Of a DNA stretch of 64,000 nt, positions 15,521 to 23,567 are shown piece by piece. A model generated the notes under the pieces. The model saw nothing but the letters and a program-made list of their open reading frames with translations, did no database searches and was not told the DNA's origin. Numbering within the stretch: position 1 is the stretch's first letter; each line of letters opens with the position of its first letter. The DNA lies in contig DUEV01000009.1 in NCBI GenBank assembly GCA_011170375.1, forward strand, positions 1,694 through 65,693, read 5' to 3'. This DNA is from Dehalococcoidia bacterium (GTDB lineage: Bacteria > Chloroflexota > Dehalococcoidia > Dehalococcoidales > Fen-1064). A program made the translations under genes and the position numbers.

Positions 15521-15850
15521 CTATTCTTTGGCTGCCAGGTCCTTTTGCCTGAGCTTTTCAATTCGTTTAATTAAGTCGTCTGCCGTTTGCTTCAGCGAAC
15601 CAACCTCGGATGCTAGCTCTGCCTCCGAGACGGGGCGGCTCTCTACAATGGCTTCTTGCGGGCAGGCTTCGAGACAGAGGCGGCACTGGTTGCACCTGGC
15701 CTGGTTTATTTCAGCCGTACTGGTGATAATTGTAATTGCTTGCCGGGGACAGCTTTCGACACACAGCCCACAGCCAAGACATAGACTTTTCTTTATCCTT
15801 AGTATCGTTCCACTTCTCGGTCTAACATTCTCATTCATAGCAGTGTCCAC
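15521..15850 (-). CDS. 2x[4Fe-4S] ferredoxin-domain protein with C-terminal coiled-coil tail
   Basis: Two cluster motifs, CLGCGLCVESCP and CNQCRLCLEACP. The C-terminal about 35 aa form a heptad-like tail (SLKQTADDLIKRIEKLRQK). Confidence 0.8.
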   Translation of the reverse strand: MDTAMNENVRPRSGTILRIKKSLCLGCGLCVESCPRQAITIITSTAEINQARCNQCRLCLEACPQEAIVESRPVSEAELASEVGSLKQTADDLIKRIEKLRQKDLAAKE

Positions 15851-15853
15851 TAT

Positions 15854-16573
15854 TCATAACCCGGCAGCAGCCGTCGTCCCTTTCCCAGCAATCATTATCG
15901 TAAATCCAGCATCAGGGAAATAGCCTTCCCGGGACTCTTCCATATACTGCACCTCTCCCGGACTCTGGAAGAGGGTCGAGACAGTCATCTCGTTCACAAA
16001 ACCTGCCTGAGCCATGAGTCTTACAACCTCATCGTGTCCATAGAACGTGGCGTACTTGTAGAAACGATGGCCTTCTGCCTTCTTCGCTTGGTAAAACTGG
16101 CCCCAGGGACTTTCCGCCAGAACCAGCCCCAGTACTATCTTGCCTCCCGGCCTCAGGATGCGGTTCGCTTCCTTCAGAACATCCAGCGGCGAATCAAGAA
16201 AACACAGGGTTACAATTAAGAAGACCGTACCGAACGATTCTTCATCAAACAGTTTCTGTTCCCCTTCGCCCAGCAGGGTATTTATTCCTCTCTTCATTGC
16301 TATCTCAGTAAGCCTGGCTGACGGGTCAACCCCCGTCTCTATACCAAGTGCCTGGGCGAAGCGACCACTCCCCACACCTATTTCAAGCCAGGGCTTCGGC
16401 AGCGATGGTAATATTTCTTCAAACGCACGTACCTCAATAGGGAAGATGAGGCTTCCTTCTCTGTCGAACCAGGCATCATATTCCTGGGCCAGGTCGTCGA
16501 AGGGAGAAGTGAGGTCTTTTTGGGATTCCATCCCTGCTAGTGGTTGTGGAGCTCTATATTTGTCTGATGACAT
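15854..16573 (-). CDS. class I SAM-dependent methyltransferase
   Basis: Motif I is LEIGVGSGRF, and the post-I and motif II regions also fit. Length is 239 aa. Confidence 0.7.
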   Translation of the reverse strand: MSSDKYRAPQPLAGMESQKDLTSPFDDLAQEYDAWFDREGSLIFPIEVRAFEEILPSLPKPWLEIGVGSGRFAQALGIETGVDPSARLTEIAMKRGINTLLGEGEQKLFDEESFGTVFLIVTLCFLDSPLDVLKEANRILRPGGKIVLGLVLAESPWGQFYQAKKAEGHRFYKYATFYGHDEVVRLMAQAGFVNEMTVSTLFQSPGEVQYMEESREGYFPDAGFTIMIAGKGTTAAAGL

Positions 16574-16603
16574 CCTCGCTCCTTAAGGATATGCTCGATT
16601 TCG

Positions 16604-16954
16604 TTAACTTGATGAGTACTTCATTCCACTAATACTTTCGGACGTCGCGCTACTCAGCAAAGCTCTCAGTGAACTTCGCTCTTGAAAGCCAAGGAGCCTC
16701 TTTATCGGTTTTGAATTATGGAAGAGAAGGATGGTCGGTACAGCAATGACGTGATATCTTTCGGCTATCTCATAGCTCTCTTCCACGTCCAGCCTGACGA
16801 ATTTGACGACCCCGTGATACTCTCTGGCTAACTGGTCAGCGACAAGGCATGTAGCGAAGCAGGGCTGGCACCACTCGGTAGTGAAGCAGGCGAACACAGG
16901 CACTTCACATCCCAGCACTTCTTTTTCGAAATCTATTCCGGTAATTTCAATCAT
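16604..16954 (-). CDS. thioredoxin-like protein (WCQPC)
   Basis: 116 aa with a thioredoxin-fold pattern and a CxxC motif, WCQPC. Confidence 0.7.
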   Translation of the reverse strand: MIEITGIDFEKEVLGCEVPVFACFTTEWCQPCFATCLVADQLAREYHGVVKFVRLDVEESYEIAERYHVIAVPTILLFHNSKPIKRLLGFQERSSLRALLSSATSESISGMKYSSS

Positions 16955-17022
16955 CGTGGTAAATTTCTTCCGGTAATTCGAACCTCATAGCCTCAGATAG
17001 AGGTATTGTATTATTGTCATCC

Positions 17023-17472
17023 TCAGTATTTGCGGTACGCCTTTTTCCAGGGCTCTCGCTTCATTGCGATGCAGTCTCTTATGGCTGCTCTGAGGGTATT
17101 TGCCGCCAGTAGTGCGCAGTGCTCACTTTCCTGGGGAAGTCCGTCCAAGGCATCTAAAATGTCCTGTTGACTAATCCTCTGAGCTTCATCAATGCTTTTC
17201 CCTTTAATTATCTCGGTGATCATGCTGCCAGAGGCTATAGTTGTTCCACAGCCGTCAGTCATGAAGCTGGTATTGATAATGGTGTCGCCATTTACCTTCA
17301 GCCATATCTCCATGGTGTCGCCGCAGGGTCCCGTCACGCTGGCAAAGCCATCAGCATCTTGTATAATGCCTGCATTCCTCGGATTCATGGCGTGGTCAAT
17401 CACCGTTTCGGAATATAACTTACGGGCATCTGCAGATAATAATTCCTGAAGCTCATCAAATTCGGTAGACAT
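17023..17472 (-). CDS. IscU/NifU N-terminal-type Fe-S cluster scaffold protein
   Basis: Three conserved Cys contexts: GPCGD, DGCGT and HCALLA. Length is 149 aa. Confidence 0.8.
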   Translation of the reverse strand: MSTEFDELQELLSADARKLYSETVIDHAMNPRNAGIIQDADGFASVTGPCGDTMEIWLKVNGDTIINTSFMTDGCGTTIASGSMITEIIKGKSIDEAQRISQQDILDALDGLPQESEHCALLAANTLRAAIRDCIAMKREPWKKAYRKY

Positions 17473-17487
17473 TCTTTCGTCTCCTGC

Positions 17488-18492
17488 TCAGTTGCCCCCA
17501 GCCGTCAACGCCTGGACTAGGGATTCACCTAGCTTGGTAACTATTTCGCTGTCATATCGTTCAATACCACCCTCGTCACAGAGCCTGGCCAGTTCAGGAT
17601 CTATCGGCAACTGGCCCAGGAGGGGGGCGTTCACAGCACGAGCCATTTCCTCACCGCGGCTCTGGCCAAAAATCTCAATCTTCTTATCTATTTCAGGTAC
17701 ATACAGGTAACTCATATTCTCGACCACACCCAGAACACGCTTTTCCATTTTCCGGGCCATGTTCACTGCCTTACGGACAATCATTTCGACCAGGTCCTGA
17801 GGGGTAAAAACGACGACTACCCCCGAAATAGGAAATGATTGCATTAGCGTGAGTGGTGCGTCTGCGGTGCCAGGAGGCAGGTCAACAATCAGATAATCAA
17901 GCTTACCCCACAGCACCTCTTCACCAAACTGTTTGATGGCATTGCCAATAAGAGGGCCGCGCCAGATGACGGCGTCATCCTCGCTGGGCAGCAGAAGATT
18001 GATAGACATTACTTCGATACCTGAGGTCGAAAGTACCGGTAGTATCCCGCTCTCATTGCCACTTGGTCGGTCGTTGAGGCCGAACATCTTGGGTATACTC
18101 GGGCCGGTGATATCGGCATCCAGAATGCCTACCTCATAGCCATTACGATTTAGAGCCACCGCAAATAAGCTCGATACCAGGGACTTACCCACTCCTCCCT
18201 TACCACTCATCACGGCAATCATATGGTCAATGTCATTCAGCTCCGTTGCTTTGGCATCGGTGTATTCTGTCTTCACATCATTGACTTCGGGCAGTTGATT
18301 TATTGCTTCTTTTACTTTGGTACTTAGCCAGTCCTGTGCGCCTGGTATCAATCCGGTTGATGACAGGGTAACGTTTACTTCGTTATCGGAAATGGTTATC
18401 TCTCGCACCAAGTTCATCCCGACGATGCTGCGTTGTACGGCAGGCACCAGCACGGTTTCTAATTTCTCTTTAACCTGCTCCTCAGTTATCAT
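17488..18492 (-). CDS. Mrp/NBP35/ApbC family Fe-S cluster carrier ATPase with N-terminal DUF59-like domain
   Basis: Deviant Walker A SGKGGVGKS, plus the family pattern DLPPGT and a ParA-like core. Confidence 0.85.
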   Translation of the reverse strand: MITEEQVKEKLETVLVPAVQRSIVGMNLVREITISDNEVNVTLSSTGLIPGAQDWLSTKVKEAINQLPEVNDVKTEYTDAKATELNDIDHMIAVMSGKGGVGKSLVSSLFAVALNRNGYEVGILDADITGPSIPKMFGLNDRPSGNESGILPVLSTSGIEVMSINLLLPSEDDAVIWRGPLIGNAIKQFGEEVLWGKLDYLIVDLPPGTADAPLTLMQSFPISGVVVVFTPQDLVEMIVRKAVNMARKMEKRVLGVVENMSYLYVPEIDKKIEIFGQSRGEEMARAVNAPLLGQLPIDPELARLCDEGGIERYDSEIVTKLGESLVQALTAGGN

Positions 18493-18515
18493 AGTCTATA
18501 CTCCAATCTCATCCC

Positions 18516-18854
18516 CTAGTGGTCACAAATGTTATCTCCTGTAGCCAGCTGGCCGTCGAGATGGTTCAGGACCGCCTTCTCCGGGTCGCTTTCCAACGCA
18601 CCAAGAATGACTCCGATGCGATTTTGCTGGAAAAGGTTTTGTGCCCTGGAGCCCATCCCACCGGCAATCACAAAGGAGACGCCCTGCTCTGCCAGCCACT
18701 CTGGAAGAAGACCGGGCTGGTGTCCTGGTGACGGAACAAGCTCCTTCTTTAGAATCTCTCGTGTTTGCTCGTCGATGTCGAAAAGGGCAAAATGCTCGCA
18801 ATGACCGAAGTGCGGCGAGACTGCCCCATTGCTTACTGGTACTGCATACCTCAT
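18516..18854 (-). CDS. NifB/NifX-family (dinitrogenase FeMo-cofactor-binding domain) protein
   Basis: 112 aa. The segments HFGHCEHF.LFD and GVSFVIAGGMG match the Nitro_FeMo-Co domain pattern. Confidence 0.7.
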   Translation of the reverse strand: MRYAVPVSNGAVSPHFGHCEHFALFDIDEQTREILKKELVPSPGHQPGLLPEWLAEQGVSFVIAGGMGSRAQNLFQQNRIGVILGALESDPEKAVLNHLDGQLATGDNICDH

Positions 18855-18866
18855 AGCAACCTCCCT

Positions 18867-19160
18867 TTACTCATTTGTTTTCAGTTCGTATTCTGGCTTA
18901 CCTTCGTCGAAAGATATCCCAACAGTCACTTGTTTCCCCTCAGCAAGGTACCTTTCCGATTCGTCCCGCAGCCTACGTGACTCAGGAGATTTTAGAAATG
19001 AGACCAGCATTTCAAACCTCTCGGTCATCTCTTTATCATCTCCTACCGCTCTCAGCAGCGACAGAAGGCAGTTATTTAGCTCCTGCTCAGCCAGGCACTT
19101 GATGCACTTTCCGGGCACCTCACTGGTCGAATACCTGGGGTCGAGGTTAATTGTGTCCAT
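18867..19160 (-). CDS. hypothetical protein (97 aa, CxxC..C)
   Basis: ORF within the operon. I placed the start at MDTINLD, which follows an AGGAGGA RBS. The longer ORF-track version would overlap the upstream gene. I recognise no family. Confidence 0.45.
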   Translation of the reverse strand: MDTINLDPRYSTSEVPGKCIKCLAEQELNNCLLSLLRAVGDDKEMTERFEMLVSFLKSPESRRLRDESERYLAEGKQVTVGISFDEGKPEYELKTNE

Positions 19161-19173
19161 TTGACCTATCCTC

Positions 19174-19410
19174 CTAGTACCGTCGGCAAGTGTCCCCGGT
19201 GGAGCAGGGTGGCGCATCGCAACGCTCGTTCCGGCCACAGCAGGTAGTACCCGCAGCCTGACTACCTGACTTGATCATGTAGGACGCAGACACCAGCTTC
19301 TCAAGATTACCGCTACCACAATCAGGGCAACGAAGCGCTTGCTCACTACTGCGGACAAACACCTCCGAGACCTGGCTACAATCCAGACACTTAAACTCGT
19401 AAATTGGCAC
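19174..19410 (-). CDS. FmdB-family zinc-ribbon protein
   Basis: MPIYEFKCLDC....CPDCGS is the characteristic CxxC..CxxC N-terminus of this family. Confidence 0.75.
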   Translation of the reverse strand: MPIYEFKCLDCSQVSEVFVRSSEQALRCPDCGSGNLEKLVSASYMIKSGSQAAGTTCCGRNERCDAPPCSTGDTCRRY

Positions 19411-19472
19411 CTTCTAGCTTGCCTCCTTCCAGATGATTTTAGGTGAGACACACTGCCTCATGAACTGACACT

Positions 19473-19664
19473 TCAGGTGGGACCGCTCGGAGTACATGAA
19501 TTACCAGAAATTGTGAAAAAGGGAGAGAAGATACGGTGCGAATCCTCTGCCCCACACGCGGGACACTTTGCTTCCCGGTTGCTATCGCTCATGCTACGCC
19601 GTAGCTCGAAACGCTCACCACATTTAGTGCACTCGTATTCATAGATTGGCATGTCGTATGTCAC
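19473..19664 (-). CDS. FmdB-family zinc-ribbon protein
   Basis: MPIYEYECTKCG....CPACGA. It shows a 4-nt overlap (ATGA) with the upstream gene. The true start could instead be the internal MPIYEY. Confidence 0.7.
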   Translation of the reverse strand: MTYDMPIYEYECTKCGERFELRRSMSDSNREAKCPACGAEDSHRIFSPFFTISGNSCTPSGPT

Positions 19665-20533
19665 CCTTTGCTATCATTCTCAAGCATCGCCGAGAGAATG
19701 CTCCAGGTCCTTTCTATCTCCTCGGAGACTCTACCATCGGAATGCTCCACTACCGGTATTCCTTTGACAATCGACTGGGTTACAATATTATCAAAGGAAA
19801 TCTTCCCGGCTATTTTGACTCCTTGGTCCAAACAGCTACTCTCTATATGCTGTGTGTTTTCCTCATTCAGGTCGCATTTGTTTATGCAGACTAGGGGCAC
19901 TACGCCGAAGTGTCGGCAGACGCCAAGCACCCTCTCTAAATCGTGCATTCCAGAGAGAGTGGGCTCGGTCACCAGTAGAGCCAGATTGACTCCGGATAGC
20001 GACGAAATCACCGGACAGCCGATGCCTGGCGGACCGTCACTGATAATATAGTCCAAATTCCTCTCATTGGCAATTTGTTTGGCCTGCTGCCGGACTGCCG
20101 CTACCAGTTTTCCCGAGTTTTCTTGGGCGATTCCCAGACGGGCGTGAACCAGCGGTCCGTAACTGGTATCGGAGATGAACCAGTATCCAGACATATTCTC
20201 CCGCATAGTTATGGCTTCAACCGGGCATATGTGGGAGCAGAAGCCACAGCCCTCACAGGATACCGGATCAACCCTGAAATCCTTGATGGCATTAAAACGG
20301 CAAAGCTCCTGGCACAGACCACACTCAGTACAGCTGTCTTCATCTATACGAGCTACCTGGCCACTCCAGAACTCGCTTTTTTGTTGCTCTGAAGGGCTGA
20401 GTAGCAAATGGAGGTCGGCGGCATCCACATCGCAGTCGGCAAGCACCTTCCTTTTTGCCAAGGCAGCAAAGGAACCGACAATGGTGGTCTTTCCGGTACC
20501 TCCCTTACCGCTTAATACTATGATTTCTTTCAT
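19661..20533 (-). CDS. MinD/ParA-superfamily P-loop ATPase with inserted 2x[4Fe-4S] ferredoxin domain (COG1149-type)
   Basis: Walker A SGKGGTGKTT, and cluster motifs CTECGLCQELC and CEGCGFCSHICP. Confidence 0.85.
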   Translation of the reverse strand: MKEIIVLSGKGGTGKTTIVGSFAALAKRKVLADCDVDAADLHLLLSPSEQQKSEFWSGQVARIDEDSCTECGLCQELCRFNAIKDFRVDPVSCEGCGFCSHICPVEAITMRENMSGYWFISDTSYGPLVHARLGIAQENSGKLVAAVRQQAKQIANERNLDYIISDGPPGIGCPVISSLSGVNLALLVTEPTLSGMHDLERVLGVCRHFGVVPLVCINKCDLNEENTQHIESSCLDQGVKIAGKISFDNIVTQSIVKGIPVVEHSDGRVSEEIERTWSILSAMLENDSKG

Positions 20534-21372
20534 CCGTCAGTACTCTTCACTCTATTGTAAAGCTTCAGAAAGCTCTCCTTCCACTGCGGGAGCCCCTCGA
20601 CCAGAGGAATGCCCCGTGAATACAGGCGGGCAATCTCAATGTCCAAGGGAATAGTTAGTAGTACGGGAATATTCTCTTTCTTACAATACTCCTCTACTCT
20701 GCTGTCACCGACACCAGCACGATTGAGCACAACGCCGCAGGGGATGTTAAGTTCCCTCACCGTTTTGACGGCAAGGGCTAGGTCATTAAGCCCGAAGGGT
20801 GTTGGCTCCGTTACCAGCAAGCAAAAATCACTATCCTTAATGGCTTCCACTACTGGACAGGATGTCCCCGGCGGAACGTCGACGATAGCGGTGTCATCGT
20901 TGTTGGTATATTCCTTTACCTTCCTGATAACAGGTGGTGCCATCGCTTCGCCTACAGTGAGTTTACCCTGGACATAGCCCACACCATCCGCATGTCCCCA
21001 TTCAACAATCCCCGTTTCTCGACTCTCTTCGGAGATAGCATCTTCTGGACAGAGGTAGCTGCAGGCGCCACAGCCATGACATAGCTGGGGGAAGGTCAGC
21101 ACATGATTGCCCAGGACGGCAATGGCATTAAAGGCACATACCTGTGCACACTTACCACAGTAGGTACACTTGCTTTCGTCTACGCTGGGAACCAGTATTG
21201 ATACAGCTTCGCTGTCGACGATTTCGGGCTTTAGAAACACGTGGTCATTCGGCTCCTCCACGTCGCAGTCGAGAAGCTGCACCCTGTCAATATTCCTCAA
21301 AGAAAGGGCAAGGCTGGTGGCGACCAGGGTCTTACCCGTCCCTCCTTTGCCACTGGCAACTGATATAATCAT
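20530..21372 (-). CDS. MinD/ParA-superfamily P-loop ATPase with inserted 2x[4Fe-4S] ferredoxin domain (COG1149-type), paralog
   Basis: Walker A SGKGGTGKTL, and cluster motifs CTYCGKCAQVC and CHGCGACSYLCP. It overlaps the downstream paralog by 4 nt. Confidence 0.85.
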   Translation of the reverse strand: MIISVASGKGGTGKTLVATSLALSLRNIDRVQLLDCDVEEPNDHVFLKPEIVDSEAVSILVPSVDESKCTYCGKCAQVCAFNAIAVLGNHVLTFPQLCHGCGACSYLCPEDAISEESRETGIVEWGHADGVGYVQGKLTVGEAMAPPVIRKVKEYTNNDDTAIVDVPPGTSCPVVEAIKDSDFCLLVTEPTPFGLNDLALAVKTVRELNIPCGVVLNRAGVGDSRVEEYCKKENIPVLLTIPLDIEIARLYSRGIPLVEGLPQWKESFLKLYNRVKSTDG

Positions 21373-21409
21373 TCTAGCCTCTTAGACTAGTCCCGCTCCG
21401 GTGATGCAT

Positions 21410-22042
21410 CTATTTTTTCTTTTTTTCCAGCTCATCAATCCGGCGCTGGATTTCCGATAGCTGCTGAGCCATTGCTTGGGATTGGGCCTTAAGGGCGTCA
21501 AGTTCCTGCTCTGGGGACTGTGGCTGAGGTGCTGGGCCTGTAGGTGGACTCATGCCACCCCCCATCCCCATGCCTCTACCCATGCCACGGCCCATACCCA
21601 TACCACGGCCCATACCCATACCACGGCCCATGCCCCTGCCTCTGCCCATACCGGAGCCACCTCCCATCCCAGCCCCGCCACCCATACCAAAGTGGTCGGG
21701 CACGTTTGCCTGAGCGCTTGCCTGGAACTTGCCTGACTGGTAGCCCTCGATGACGTCCTTTATTTTACCAGAAATACCGGTCAATATTTGGATGCCGGCC
21801 GAGGACAACACCTGATAGGCGTTAGGCCCGCAGTTTCCGGTCAGGACAGCCTGCACACCCTTGTCGGCAATTGTCTGAGCAGCGGAGATACCGGCTCCAC
21901 CGGCTGCCATAGCACTGGAGTTGTCCATCGCCTCGAACTCCATTGTTGCCGGGTTGGCAATGATGAAATACTGGCAGCGTCCGAAACGGGGGTCAACCTC
22001 AGCATCTAATCCGGGACCGGTGGCTGAAATAGCAATCTTCAT
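21410..22042 (-). CDS. NifB/NifX-family domain protein fused to a Gly/Met/Arg-rich repeat and C-terminal coiled coil
   Basis: The N-terminal about 115 aa match the Nitro_FeMo-Co pattern (DPRFGRCQYF, GVQAVLTGNCGPNA). This is followed by GMGGGAGMGGGSGMGRGRGMGRGMGMGRGMGMGRGMGRGMGMGGGM and then the tail ELDALKAQSQAMAQQLSEIQRRIDELEKKKK. Confidence 0.8.
   Translation of the reverse strand: MKIAISATGPGLDAEVDPRFGRCQYFIIANPATMEFEAMDNSSAMAAGGAGISAAQTIADKGVQAVLTGNCGPNAYQVLSSAGIQILTGISGKIKDVIEGYQSGKFQASAQANVPDHFGMGGGAGMGGGSGMGRGRGMGRGMGMGRGMGMGRGMGRGMGMGGGMSPPTGPAPQPQSPEQELDALKAQSQAMAQQLSEIQRRIDELEKKKK
21585..21638. repeat. 18-nt tandem repeat (2 perfect units plus 1 degenerate) inside the CDS, encoding GMGRGM repeats
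   Basis: The unit CCACGGCCCATACCCATA occurs at 21585..21602 and 21603..21620, with a degenerate third unit at 21621..21638. Confidence 0.85.
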
Positions 22043-22045
22043 AGC

Positions 22046-22348
22046 TTATCCTTGCTCCTTCCCACTCTCTATTTCCTGTATCCTTGCCTCTATCTCTTTC
22101 AGGTCATCACTCATAGATTGGGACAGACCCCTAAGGTAATCGACCTCGTCTTGTCGGGATATCACTGGCGAGAATGGATAAGCTCCGCGATAAGGCACAC
22201 CCCACGGCACAGCGTATGGGTAGGGCATATATCGTGCCCTCCAGGCGTATCCCGGCCATACCGGCCGTATTGAGGTGGCGCAGAATCCTCTGCCGCCACC
22301 TGTCATCGGGCCTATCCCACGAGGACCGGTACCATCGAATCCTGGCAT
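22046..22348 (-). CDS. DUF5320 domain-containing protein
   Basis: The N-terminus MPGFDGTGPRGIGPMTGGGRGFC matches the DUF5320 signature. The C-terminal tail is a coiled coil, EVDYLRGLSQSMSDDLKEIEARIQEIE. Confidence 0.7.
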   Translation of the reverse strand: MPGFDGTGPRGIGPMTGGGRGFCATSIRPVWPGYAWRARYMPYPYAVPWGVPYRGAYPFSPVISRQDEVDYLRGLSQSMSDDLKEIEARIQEIESGKEQG

Positions 22349-22367
22349 GGTTGCCTCCTTTATAAGA

Positions 22368-22718
22368 TTAATCTTCCTTTTGTTCGCTCTCCAGACCCCT
22401 CATTCTGGACTCGATTTGCTCTAGCTGCTCCTTTACTGCCTCTGCCTGCTCCCTGAGGTAATCAAGCTCTTCTTCCCTGGTCATTTGGGGGGTGAAGGGT
22501 GCATATCCCGGGTAGGCAGGTTCTTGGCCGTAGAAGGGTGTCTGGTACGGCCATGGTTGCTCAGCACCAGGGCCACTGAAAAAATACCCGCAACGTGGTA
22601 GCCCTCCTCTACCTATCCCAACATAAGGCCAGGGAGGAGAAGCGCCTCGAAAGCCGAAGCCCATGCCTCTACCAAATCCACGGCCAAAGCCTCTTCCTCG
22701 TCCAAATCCATTAGGCAT
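22368..22718 (-). CDS. DUF5320-like protein with RG/FG-rich N-terminus
   Basis: The N-terminus is GRGRGFGRGFGRGMGFGFRG. The C-terminal tail is EELDYLREQAEAVKEQLEQIESRMRGLE. Confidence 0.6.
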   Translation of the reverse strand: MPNGFGRGRGFGRGFGRGMGFGFRGASPPWPYVGIGRGGLPRCGYFFSGPGAEQPWPYQTPFYGQEPAYPGYAPFTPQMTREEELDYLREQAEAVKEQLEQIESRMRGLESEQKED

Positions 22719-22745
22719 TTTTGACCTCCTCGAATGAACTTTTTT

Positions 22746-22955
22746 CTACCACCGTGGGTAGTAGTGGGGTGCGTACCAGCGCCTGCCGAAACCACGGCCT
22801 CTGCCACGGCCCCAGCCTCTCCAGCCAAAGCTGAACCACCGTCTTCGTGGCATCAGGCTGGCAAAACCGGGACGGCCGAAACCGGCGCAGTAGCCGGCAC
22901 CTCTTCCAGTCATTGGTCCCATTCCTCTGGGTCCAGTTCCATCTCCGAATGGCAT
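22746..22955 (-). CDS. DUF5320 domain-containing protein (short form)
   Basis: MPFGDGTGPRGMGPMTGRGAGYCAG signature followed by an RG-rich tail. It has no coiled coil. Confidence 0.65.
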   Translation of the reverse strand: MPFGDGTGPRGMGPMTGRGAGYCAGFGRPGFASLMPRRRWFSFGWRGWGRGRGRGFGRRWYAPHYYPRW

Positions 22956-23093
22956 TTACCTCACCTCCTCTTCACGCGATTTTTTTCATTTCATCAACAC
23001 TGACTGTCAAGATGCTCCTAATCGAAGCTGGTGTTTTCCTTGATTTTTGCCTCTGCCCAAAAGGCTGCTCTGACTCACGCTACAGTCAAACCC

Positions 23094-23567
23094 TTACCAG
23101 CCACGTCCTCCTCGATGGCGTCTCTTCCAACCACCTCTGCCCCGGCCCATCCCTGCGGGCAAGAGAGGCATTATACTCGGTGTTTCACACTCGGGGCAGG
23201 ACTCGGGTGGGGCAGATATCATGGCTTCAAAAGGAACATCCCATTCATGACCGTTAAGGCACTGGAACCGACTCCAGGCCATCTCAAAATTGCCACCCTC
23301 AATTCTCATTGCTTTTCCATTAAGGAGAGCGTTGGCTATTTTTTGCCGCGCGGAGGTCAAGACTCTTTGAAAGGTTGGGCGGGAGATATTCATTCTTTCC
23401 GCACCCTTCTCCTGTTCCAGACCTTCCAGGTCCTTGAGCCGTATTGCCTCAGCCTCCTCTACCGAGAGAACAATTTCGTCAAGGACTCTCAGTGGCACAC
23501 CGGTTGGCTTGAAATATGTTGTTTGTGGCAGGAATGCGACTCGGCGGCATTTTTGCGGTCTTGGCAT
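23094..23567 (-). CDS. DUF134 (UPF0251) family putative DNA-binding protein with C-terminal zinc ribbon and GR-rich tail
   Basis: The N-terminus MPRPQKCRRV....F.P.G is the DUF134 hallmark. An HTH-like segment (ISRPTFQRVLTSARQKIA) follows, then C..H...CPEC, and the tail GMGRGRGGWKRRHRGGRGW. Confidence 0.75.
   Translation of the reverse strand: MPRPQKCRRVAFLPQTTYFKPTGVPLRVLDEIVLSVEEAEAIRLKDLEGLEQEKGAERMNISRPTFQRVLTSARQKIANALLNGKAMRIEGGNFEMAWSRFQCLNGHEWDVPFEAMISAPPESCPECETPSIMPLLPAGMGRGRGGWKRRHRGGRGW

Follow-up and report, generated by a model that had tools for sequence, protein, structure and literature searches.

What joins several proteins of one operon that share Gly/Met/Arg-rich segments and a heptad tail? 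The question is raised by a 64,000-nucleotide stretch of contig DUEV01000009.1 from a Dehalococcoidia bacterium (the window; all coordinates of its features are window positions), in which the genes concerned are all co-directional on the minus strand. The initial annotation of this stretch had proposed that a cluster carrier and a ferredoxin sharing such a tail with small DUF5320 proteins assemble on a common coiled-coil scaffold. As judged from sequence, the shared tracts and tails are copies of one catalogued but unstudied module, Pfam DUF5320, and this module is a regular component of gene clusters of the orange-protein (ORP) type in strict anaerobes.

The G/M/R and G/F/R peptides quoted in the initial annotation are all encoded where it had placed them, in minus-strand open reading frames (ORFs). 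DUF134 ends in GMGRGRGGWKRRHRGGRGW, the 69-residue DUF5320 protein contains GPMTGRGAGYC and GWGRGRGRGFGRRW, the 116-residue DUF5320 protein contains GRGRGFGRGFGRGMGFGFRG, and the 210-residue NifX-type protein has a 46-residue tract of 57% Gly, 26% Met and 13% Arg. In a six-frame translation of the whole window, G/R-dense segments of 18 residues were present in 5 of 249 ORFs of at least 60 residues, and four of these five are adjacent genes at 21410-23567. The three heptad tails (100-, 116- and 210-residue proteins) aligned at z = 9.0-10.5 against composition shuffles and at z = 5.1-7.2 against shuffles retaining the heptad register, and a hidden Markov model (HMM) of the tail matched just these three of 533 ORFs in the window. 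The tails are thus alignable beyond generic heptad composition, and both shuffle tests rule out chance or a generic heptad pattern as the source of their similarity.

Domains of the window proteins were assigned by profile scans with Pfam and NCBIfam. Of the proteins encoded downstream of DUF134, the four that bear a tract or tail all exceed the gathering score of PF17253 (DUF5320; 27 bits), within which the N-terminal motif occupies positions 1-25 and the shared tail positions about 60-99. Neither the ferredoxin nor DUF134 has a PF17253 match. The view that the tracts and tails sit on otherwise unrelated proteins is therefore right only in part, and fails for these four. Nor is the module wholly undescribed, although the initial annotation knew of no description: tail and tracts are an annotated Pfam family, NCBI already names such homologs 'DUF5320 domain-containing protein', and the IssA tail and an RG motif in Methanosarcina mazei proteins, both discussed below, have been published. 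No literature on DUF5320 function was found, the name being mentioned in two papers and in passing only. A search of the PDB gave no relatives of DUF5320; what it matched was coiled-coil noise, for example myosin-7 (E 0.03).

Alignment of 30 stand-alone homologs and AlphaFold2 (AF2) monomer predictions indicate that the module is built of three separable parts: an N-terminal peptide, a disordered cationic tract and a C-terminal helix. The N-terminal peptide is near-invariant (MPGFDGTGPxGxGPMTGxGxGxC, also given as MPGFDGTGPRGMGPMTGGGRGFC); its columns are invariant or at least 90% conserved among the 30 homologs, and it holds two conserved Arg. In the window the motif (MPxxDGTGPxGxGPMTGxGxGxC) is found in the 100- and 69-residue proteins, is degenerate in the 116-residue protein and is replaced by the NifX domain in the 210-residue protein, which is a fusion. 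The tract is Gly/Arg-rich, with aromatic and Pro residues or, in the fusion, Met; the corresponding middle part of the 30 homologs is variable and consists of Pro, aromatic, Arg and Gly residues. The helix comprises roughly 30 residues, or about four heptads (stand-alone consensus TREQELDxLKxxAQxMRxxLxxIEARIQxLE), and is carried by the 100-, 116- and 210-residue proteins but missing from the 69-residue one.

The 100-residue protein shows all three parts, with the near-invariant N-terminal 23 residues at 22280-22348, a Pro/aromatic cationic middle and the helix at 22055-22156. AF2 predicted its residues 1-60 as disordered (predicted local distance difference test, pLDDT, 40-52) and residues 65-98 as a single helix (pLDDT 84-94). 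In the 116-residue paralog, which has orthologs in about 30 loci, a GFGRG tract (22644-22718) is followed by a conserved FRGASPPWPYVGIGRGGLPRCGYF block, a Pro/aromatic linker and an acidic helical tail (22371-22484). The 69-residue paralog consists of the N-terminal motif MPFGDGTGPRGMGPMTGRGAGYC and a G/R/W/F tract with a terminal W; its isoelectric point (pI) is 11.9 and its net charge +12, with 15 aromatic residues and 1 Cys, and its orthologs in many Dehalococcoidia loci likewise finish in ..YPRW or ..W. In the stand-alone DUF5320 proteins of the window the disordered part is 63-78 residues long and has a pI of 10.0; it contains 6-7 cationic, 12-17 aromatic, 12-20 Gly and 11-13 Pro residues and a single Cys. 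The disordered part carries a charge of +5 and the helix of -5 or -7. The stand-alone proteins are block polyampholytes, a charge pattern that would favour self-association. An origin of these small Gly-rich proteins as precursors of ribosomally synthesised and post-translationally modified peptides was rejected, because the window operon has no radical S-adenosylmethionine (SAM) gene and the module is fused to folded iron-sulfur (Fe-S) domains. Unlike the window operon, loci L001 and L003 contain a radical SAM gene.

The 210-residue fusion is an orange-protein/NifX-type carrier in which the NifX domain takes the place of the N-terminal peptide, in front of tract and helix. The best solved relative of its NifX domain is 2WFB, annotated 'ORP' (E 4e-27, residues 2-113), followed by MTH1175 (1EO1, E 3.8e-25). 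AF2 predicted the NifX fold with confidence (pLDDT >90), residues 120-174 as disordered (pLDDT <50) and residues 177-209 as a helix (pLDDT 80-87). The tract of 58 residues contains 27 Gly and 12 Met but no acidic residue, aromatic residue or Cys (pI 12.0, net +6), and is coded by a degenerate 18/6-bp tandem repeat at 21547-21652. Among 108 fusion homologs the tract varies between 36 and 80 residues in length and is constant in composition (G 41%, M 18%, R 7%, acidic residues almost absent). The helix of these homologs has L3, L6, S10, L13, L17, I20, I24 and L27 at its a/d positions, with 3-4 spacing; one 'a' position is Ser in 99%, and conservation reaches at least 89% at several surface positions (Q, Q, A, Q, Q). 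Pairwise identity in the tail (0.71) is about equal to that in the globular domain (0.76). A membrane-targeting amphipathic helix, as at the MinD C-terminus, is not favoured in view of the strict a/d spacing over 27 residues and the polar, conserved other faces. Searching with the fusion protein gave 7,680 proteins at E <= 1e-3, and among the 120 matches listed nearly all carry PF17253 together with PF02579. The exact 210-residue sequence is absent from a collection of 15 billion proteins in which its three DUF5320 neighbours are present (70,218-bp contig); a different gene call or a different repeat length in the tandem-repeat tract may account for this.

The module is widespread and keeps constant company. 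A genome scan with the DUF5320 alignment yielded at least 485 loci, of which the best 80 were analysed. Their ORFs were scanned with HMMs built from the window proteins, that is from a single lineage, so the neighbour counts are lower bounds. The best 80 loci span more than ten phyla of anaerobes, with Dehalococcoidia, Desulfobacterota, Bipolaricaulota, Omnitrophota, Planctomycetota, Clostridia and Thermoanaerobacteraceae, Thermotogae, Atribacteria, Latescibacteria, Cloacimonadota and Caldithrix among the groups. The recurring gene order is [DUF134], DUF5320 (1-6 genes), NifX-like, (NifX-like), MinD-ferredoxin x2, (NifX-like), Mrp, IscU. In 53 of 72 loci DUF5320 is followed within 1.5 kb by a NifX-like gene; a MinD-ferredoxin ATPase lies within 5 kb downstream in 45 of 55 (as a pair in 43) and DUF134 within 2.5 kb upstream in 34 of 56. 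The NifX-like/Mrp/IscU order recurs in L001, L003 and across loci, and synteny extends over the entire operon in a 613-kb metagenome contig and a metagenome-assembled genome of Dehalococcoidia. A profile of the tail alone, run against 1.84 billion representative proteins, matched 2,895 clusters at E <= 1e-3, of which 215 remained at E <= 1e-10; in nearly every case the matched region was the C-terminus.

Among these homologs tract and helix occur on at least two kinds of Fe-S-related domain, which answers the survey of fusion partners proposed in the initial annotation. The commonest architecture, N-motif, tract and helix, was found in 89 ORFs; 39 have a GFGRG tract, a FRGSSPPWPYVGLGRGGLPRCGYF block and the helix, or a Trp/Tyr-rich segment and the helix; and 31 are NifX domains with G/M/R tract and helix. 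Most of 30 helix-less N-motif ORFs have a tract ending in Trp, and the remainder a G/R tract followed by a zinc ribbon. In L005 (3359-3931), P0432 and P0437 a 2x[4Fe-4S] ferredoxin is followed by a G/R tract, the conserved block and the helix, so that the body of the 116-residue DUF5320 type sits behind the ferredoxin. Rarer arrangements are N-motif and helix without tract (L001 8496-8723), two tandem tails (P0346, P0356, P0402), NifX with short Arg-rich tails (L073, L075), NifX with G/M/R tract and a divergent helix (Bipolaricaulota, L034 and L050) and NifX with tract and zinc ribbon (L024). The module dissection, the subfamilies, the ferredoxin fusions and the link of DUF5320 to ORP clusters appear to be new, as does a separate ferredoxin-type tail described below.

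Several side observations concern these architectures. The small protein with N-motif, G/R tract and zinc ribbon is conserved and has a four-Cys ribbon of the form ..CVCPSCGxxxPHxxGxPCYxxxCPxCGxxMxR (L001 9870-10100; L026 10405-10629; L029 2542-2772; L030 11398-11628), and in L024 (3188-3814) its tract and ribbon are fused behind a NifX domain. Helix and zinc ribbon look like alternative end modules. NifX-like proteins adjoining DUF5320 genes in Omnitrophota and other phyla carry a different, conserved Cys/His-rich tail, GGESLCxPGAGKGYGxxKTxCDHPH.., in place of the G/R tract (L035 1348-1770; L053 6586-6984; L061 7966-8358; L070 10491-10892; L076 10498-10896). An N-motif DUF5320 ORF in L042 (1055-1168) has a tail variant of the NifX-fusion type, KLEALKAQSQALAQQLSEIQRRIEEI, which may reflect recombination between paralogs or an assembly chimera at the contig end. 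Two matches to the tail profile, P0348 (150 residues) and P0491 (257 residues), have unrelated N-terminal parts, by eye one like a PurE-type fragment and the other hydrophobic and membrane-like; both are probably gene-call or assembly artefacts.

The ferredoxin of the window had been credited with a similar tail. This tail, PVSxxELxxTVxSLKQKxDDLxxRIEKLK, recurs in about 70 of 78 ferredoxin homologs, and none of the 78 has a precomputed DUF5320 match. It is also found on an unrelated Fe-S domain, PF04060, in L001, L009, L030 and L039, and is therefore a mobile module of its own. Pairwise, the ferredoxin tail and the DUF5320 tails aligned at z 0.3-2.0, without significance, and the DUF5320 tail HMM gave no match to ferredoxin-tail ORFs even at E <= 10. 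For these reasons we did not file it as a DUF5320 member. Profile-profile comparison was more suggestive: hhalign aligned the two tail profiles with a score of 24.4 (P 5.6e-5, probability 66%), with RIEKL on RIQEL in register, compared with 9.1 +/- 2.2 for column permutations and 15.5 +/- 2.9 (maximum 23.5) for heptad-preserving controls, and 0 of 60 controls reached 24.4. Fourteen of 32 sub-threshold matches of the ferredoxin-tail HMM fall on DUF5320 tails, and the ferredoxin domain of the window is 49% identical to that of the ferredoxin-DUF5320 fusion in L005. The claimed likeness thus fails pairwise and survives as a weak resemblance between profiles; at most, the tail would be distantly related to that of DUF5320, or else it would be a convergent docking helix.

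Two described systems resemble this locus. IssA (PF2025) of Pyrococcus furiosus joins a NifX-type IPR003731 domain to an unstructured tail of 70 residues, which is Pro-rich, contains 7 cationic, 14 aromatic and 15 Gly residues and the single Cys of the protein, and has a pI of 10.7 (PMC5524996). The tail was proposed to wrap anionic thioferrate electrostatically, and IssA forms large particles (PMC5524996). The same study places MTH1175 in the IssA clade and names an uncharacterised 'IssX' clade with glycine-rich, high-pI tails (PMC5524996). The 210-residue fusion likewise consists of an IPR003731 domain and an unstructured, cationic, Gly-rich tail, and the disordered parts of the stand-alone DUF5320 proteins match the published tail chemistry (Pro, Arg, aromatic, Gly, one Cys, pI about 10); this likeness is one of composition and domain family, read against the published description of the tail. 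Unlike IssA, DUF5320 tracts also occur as free small proteins and on ferredoxins, and the fusion tract is Met-rich and has neither the Trp/aromatic residues nor the Cys of the IssA type. With a pI of 12, no acidic residue, 12 Met and no aromatic residue, it fits the 'IssX' description better.

The second system is the ORP complex. In Desulfovibrio vulgaris Hildenborough, Orp3, Orp4, Orp5, Orp8 and Orp9 form a five-protein complex putatively tied to cell division (PMC6345978), and the orp operons are activated at low redox potential (PMC8359166). Papers of 2019 and 2021 both give the cellular role of the complex as 'putative'. In common with these clusters, the window encodes an ORP-type protein of the NifX fold (2WFB) and a pair of MinD-like ATPases, each with two ferredoxin motifs; Mrp/NBP35 and a NifX-like domain are present as separate genes. 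It differs in several respects. ORP of D. gigas, a protein of 120 residues, lacks both tract and tail, and the ORP literature examined does not name DUF5320 among the members of the complex. MrpORP is split into two adjacent genes in the window, where the 112-residue NifX-like protein reaches 120.5 bits against the C-terminal part of NF041136 (MrpORP), short of the cut-off of 450. DUF134 heads the window operon, whereas the D. vulgaris operons are under the sigma-54 activator OrpR; no OrpR-like gene is present in the window operon, in which no sigma-54 promoter search was made.

Given the homology, modular shuffling, conservation, fixed place in ORP-type clusters and predicted disorder and helix of the module, we infer that DUF5320 oligomerises and binds a ligand. 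The explanation we favour, and consider somewhat better supported than its negation, is that the tracts are IssA-like polyanion-binding segments, made multivalent by a short coiled coil, which tether the carrier, the small paralogs and possibly ferredoxins. The helix would form a short coiled coil and thereby give homo- or hetero-oligomers of DUF5320 paralogs, and the same helix would tie the NifX/ORP carrier and, in other genomes, a ferredoxin into one assembly. The cationic tracts would bind anionic inorganic species electrostatically, either iron sulfide resembling thioferrate or an ORP-type anionic metal-sulfide cluster. Oligomerisation through the helix would raise the valency of the tracts and could nucleate or organise a protein-mineral particle. 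Since the module is fused at gene level to carrier and ferredoxins, these proteins can be argued to work together. The scaffold originally proposed is in line with these fusions and with the synteny; the inclusion of the window ferredoxin in it is weakened by the distance of its tail from DUF5320.

A number of points weigh against this explanation. The N-terminal 23 residues are conserved in sequence, beyond composition, for which an electrostatic model offers no explanation; conservation at the level of residues suggests a defined partner or site, for which the MinD-type ATPases are candidates. The fusion tract, without aromatics and with 26% Met, is unlike IssA, and its richness in Met is left unexplained. 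The role of the 30-residue helix may instead be docking to a folded partner. The AF2 evidence comes from predictions of monomers. The main text of the IssA study mentions no coiled coil for IssA (0 occurrences of the term; PMC5524996), the published ORP complex does not include the first gene of the orp7-8-9 operon, and the physiological role of IssA itself is unsettled.

A more ambitious version makes DUF5320 the organising subunit of the ORP machinery of strict anaerobes, a family of free and fused IssA-like tails that would build, by a shared coiled coil, a multivalent cationic scaffold. This scaffold would hold anionic thioferrate-like iron sulfide or metal-sulfide clusters as a protein-mineral condensate, to be loaded, unloaded or positioned by the ATPase pair; this we regard as improbable. 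To our knowledge, IssA is the only characterised iron-sulfur storage protein. If the organising-subunit reading were true, iron-sulfur storage of the IssA type would reach beyond hyperthermophilic archaea into mesophilic bacteria of over ten phyla. A catalogued, unstudied family of small proteins is a near-constant neighbour of ORP-type genes, repeatedly fused to their carrier and to ferredoxins, and its combination of the chemical signature of the IssA tail with a putative oligomerisation helix offers a handle on the function of ORP clusters. Should the mechanism fail, a tidy case of domain shuffling inside a known DUF remains.

An alternative raised in the initial annotation is condensate-like assembly. 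DUF5320 would then phase-separate alone and concentrate clients that bear the same tract and helix, such as the ORP carrier and ferredoxin, in a membraneless compartment for cluster assembly. McdB-type adaptors, whose genes adjoin those of ParA/MinD-family ATPases, are likewise small and combine a basic disordered region with a coiled coil. By this analogy, the two MinD-type ATPases might position the compartment, as McdA does McdB. The Arg and aromatic 'stickers' with Gly spacers, the opposed charges of disordered part (+5) and helix (-5, -7), the predicted disorder (AF2), the 1-6 module-bearing genes per locus, the proteins with tandem double tails and the constant adjacency to paired MinD-family ATPases would all suit such a scaffold. 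The idea overlaps the favoured explanation, because the block-polyampholyte charge pattern would also favour self-association and IssA itself makes large particles. However, the N-motif and the FRGSSPPWPYVGLGRGGLPRCGYF block are conserved residue by residue, which is unusual for regions that act through their composition, aromatic residues are missing from the fusion tract, and the comparison with McdB is an analogy only, the window ATPases having ferredoxin inserts and a metal-cluster context. We consider a condensate scaffold unlikely.

Binding of nucleic acid, the other possibility raised initially, appears quite unlikely. In this case the RG/RGG-like tracts would bind DNA or RNA and DUF5320 would act as co-regulator or antagonist of DUF134. 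A motif survey listed one DUF134 and one DUF5320 protein of Methanosarcina mazei with a potential quadruplex-binding RG motif (PMC7565180). In the window, DUF134 has a C..H..CPxC zinc-ribbon-like insert followed by a basic G/R/W tail (residues 139-157, 23097-23153; pI 12, net +7), and a G/R-rich, often Trp-containing C-terminus, judged by composition, is present in nearly all 56 operon-linked DUF134 ORFs across phyla. This matching tail and the upstream position of DUF134 in 34 of 56 loci speak for a joint role. Against it, the tracts are fused to cluster carriers and ferredoxins and not to DNA-binding domains, the linkage is tighter to NifX-like (53/72) and MinD-ferredoxin genes (45/55) than to DUF134 (34/56), and the acidic helix and the single conserved Cys are left unexplained. 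The G/R tail of DUF134 probably serves as an auxiliary DNA contact of this helix-turn-helix (HTH) regulator. In Dehalococcoidia the insert before the tail reads C..GHEW..VPFE...CPxC (window 23097-23300; DUF134 ORFs of L001-L084), and in Desulfobacterota and Bipolaricaulota it is missing while the basic tail is retained.

N-terminal peptides of MinE, ParB and McdB contact and stimulate MinD/ParA-family ATPases. By analogy, the DUF5320 N-terminal peptide could contact and stimulate the two MinD/ParA-family ATPases, with the helix as dimeriser and the tract as spacer. The motif does lie at the extreme N-terminus, is near-invariant with two conserved Arg and is predicted to be disordered when alone, and paired MinD-ferredoxin ATPases accompany it in 43 of 55 loci. 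But the NifX and ferredoxin fusions retain tract and helix and lose the peptide, and therefore the shared segments studied here are not that peptide; moreover, the nearest neighbours are NifX-like genes. This role is also decidedly improbable as an account of the module.

Met motifs bind Cu(I), and the orange protein holds an anionic Mo-Cu-S cluster. Binding of Cu(I) or a thiometallate by the M-G-M / M-G-R-G-M spacing of the fusion tract is nevertheless very doubtful, although 12 Met in 58 residues have MxM-like spacing, the composition is kept across 108 homologs and ORP is the closest solved relative of the NifX domain, as the stand-alone DUF5320 tracts have aromatics where the fusion has Met, Met may merely reflect coding by the 18-bp repeat, and the Pfam scan detected no copper or molybdenum gene within the operon.

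The features of the operon are collected in Table 1. From its 5' end the operon encodes DUF134, the three DUF5320 proteins (69, 116 and 100 residues) and the 210-residue fusion, followed by two MinD/CbiA ATPases that contain ferredoxin inserts, a pair of zinc-ribbon proteins of the FmdB type and the second NifX-like protein. Next come Mrp/NBP35, an IscU-like scaffold, a thioredoxin, a methyltransferase and the 2x[4Fe-4S] ferredoxin; a thioredoxin, DnaJ and a pyridine-nucleotide disulfide reductase follow.

Table 1. Positions, strand and family evidence for features of the DUF5320 operon in the window.
Feature	Position	Strand	Evidence
DUF134 putative HTH regulator, first operon gene	23094..23567	-	PF02001 E 1.3e-24
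DUF5320 paralog without helix, 69 residues	22746..22955	-	PF17253 E 5.7e-15, 56.7 bits, profile positions 1-59 only
DUF5320 paralog, 116 residues	22368..22718	-	PF17253 30.4 bits (cut-off 27); tail HMM E 3e-18
Canonical DUF5320, 100 residues	22046..22348	-	PF17253 E 3.2e-15, 57.5 bits, whole profile
NifX-type + DUF5320 fusion, 210 residues	21410..22042	-	PF17253 on residues 123-205, E 5.8e-9, 37.5 bits
Orange-protein/NifX-type globular domain of fusion	21689..22042	-	PF02579 (IPR003731) E 1.3e-23
G/M/R tract and Pro-rich linker of fusion, residues 119-176	21515..21688	-	
C-terminal heptad helix (DUF5320 tail) of fusion, residues 177-210	21413..21514	-	
MinD/CbiA-type P-loop ATPase pair with 2x[4Fe-4S] ferredoxin inserts, Orp3/Orp4-like	19661..21372	-	PF01656, PF10609, Fer4
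Individual MinD-ferredoxin ATPase genes	20530-21372; 19661-20533	-	CbiA/ParA and Fer4 family matches
Second NifX-like protein, 112 residues	18516-18854	-	C-terminal domain of NCBIfam MrpORP
Mrp/NBP35 carrier	17488-18492	-	
IscU/NifU_N-like scaffold	17023-17472	-	
2x[4Fe-4S] ferredoxin with conserved C-terminal helical tail	15521..15850	-	Fer4; tail residues 73-109, 15524-15634

A scan of the operon for promoters and terminators gave sites no more numerous than in shuffles. Between the ATPase pair and the second NifX-like gene, a 123-residue ORF without family match (18867-19238) overlaps the 3' end of the 78-residue zinc-ribbon ORF (19174-19410) in another frame.

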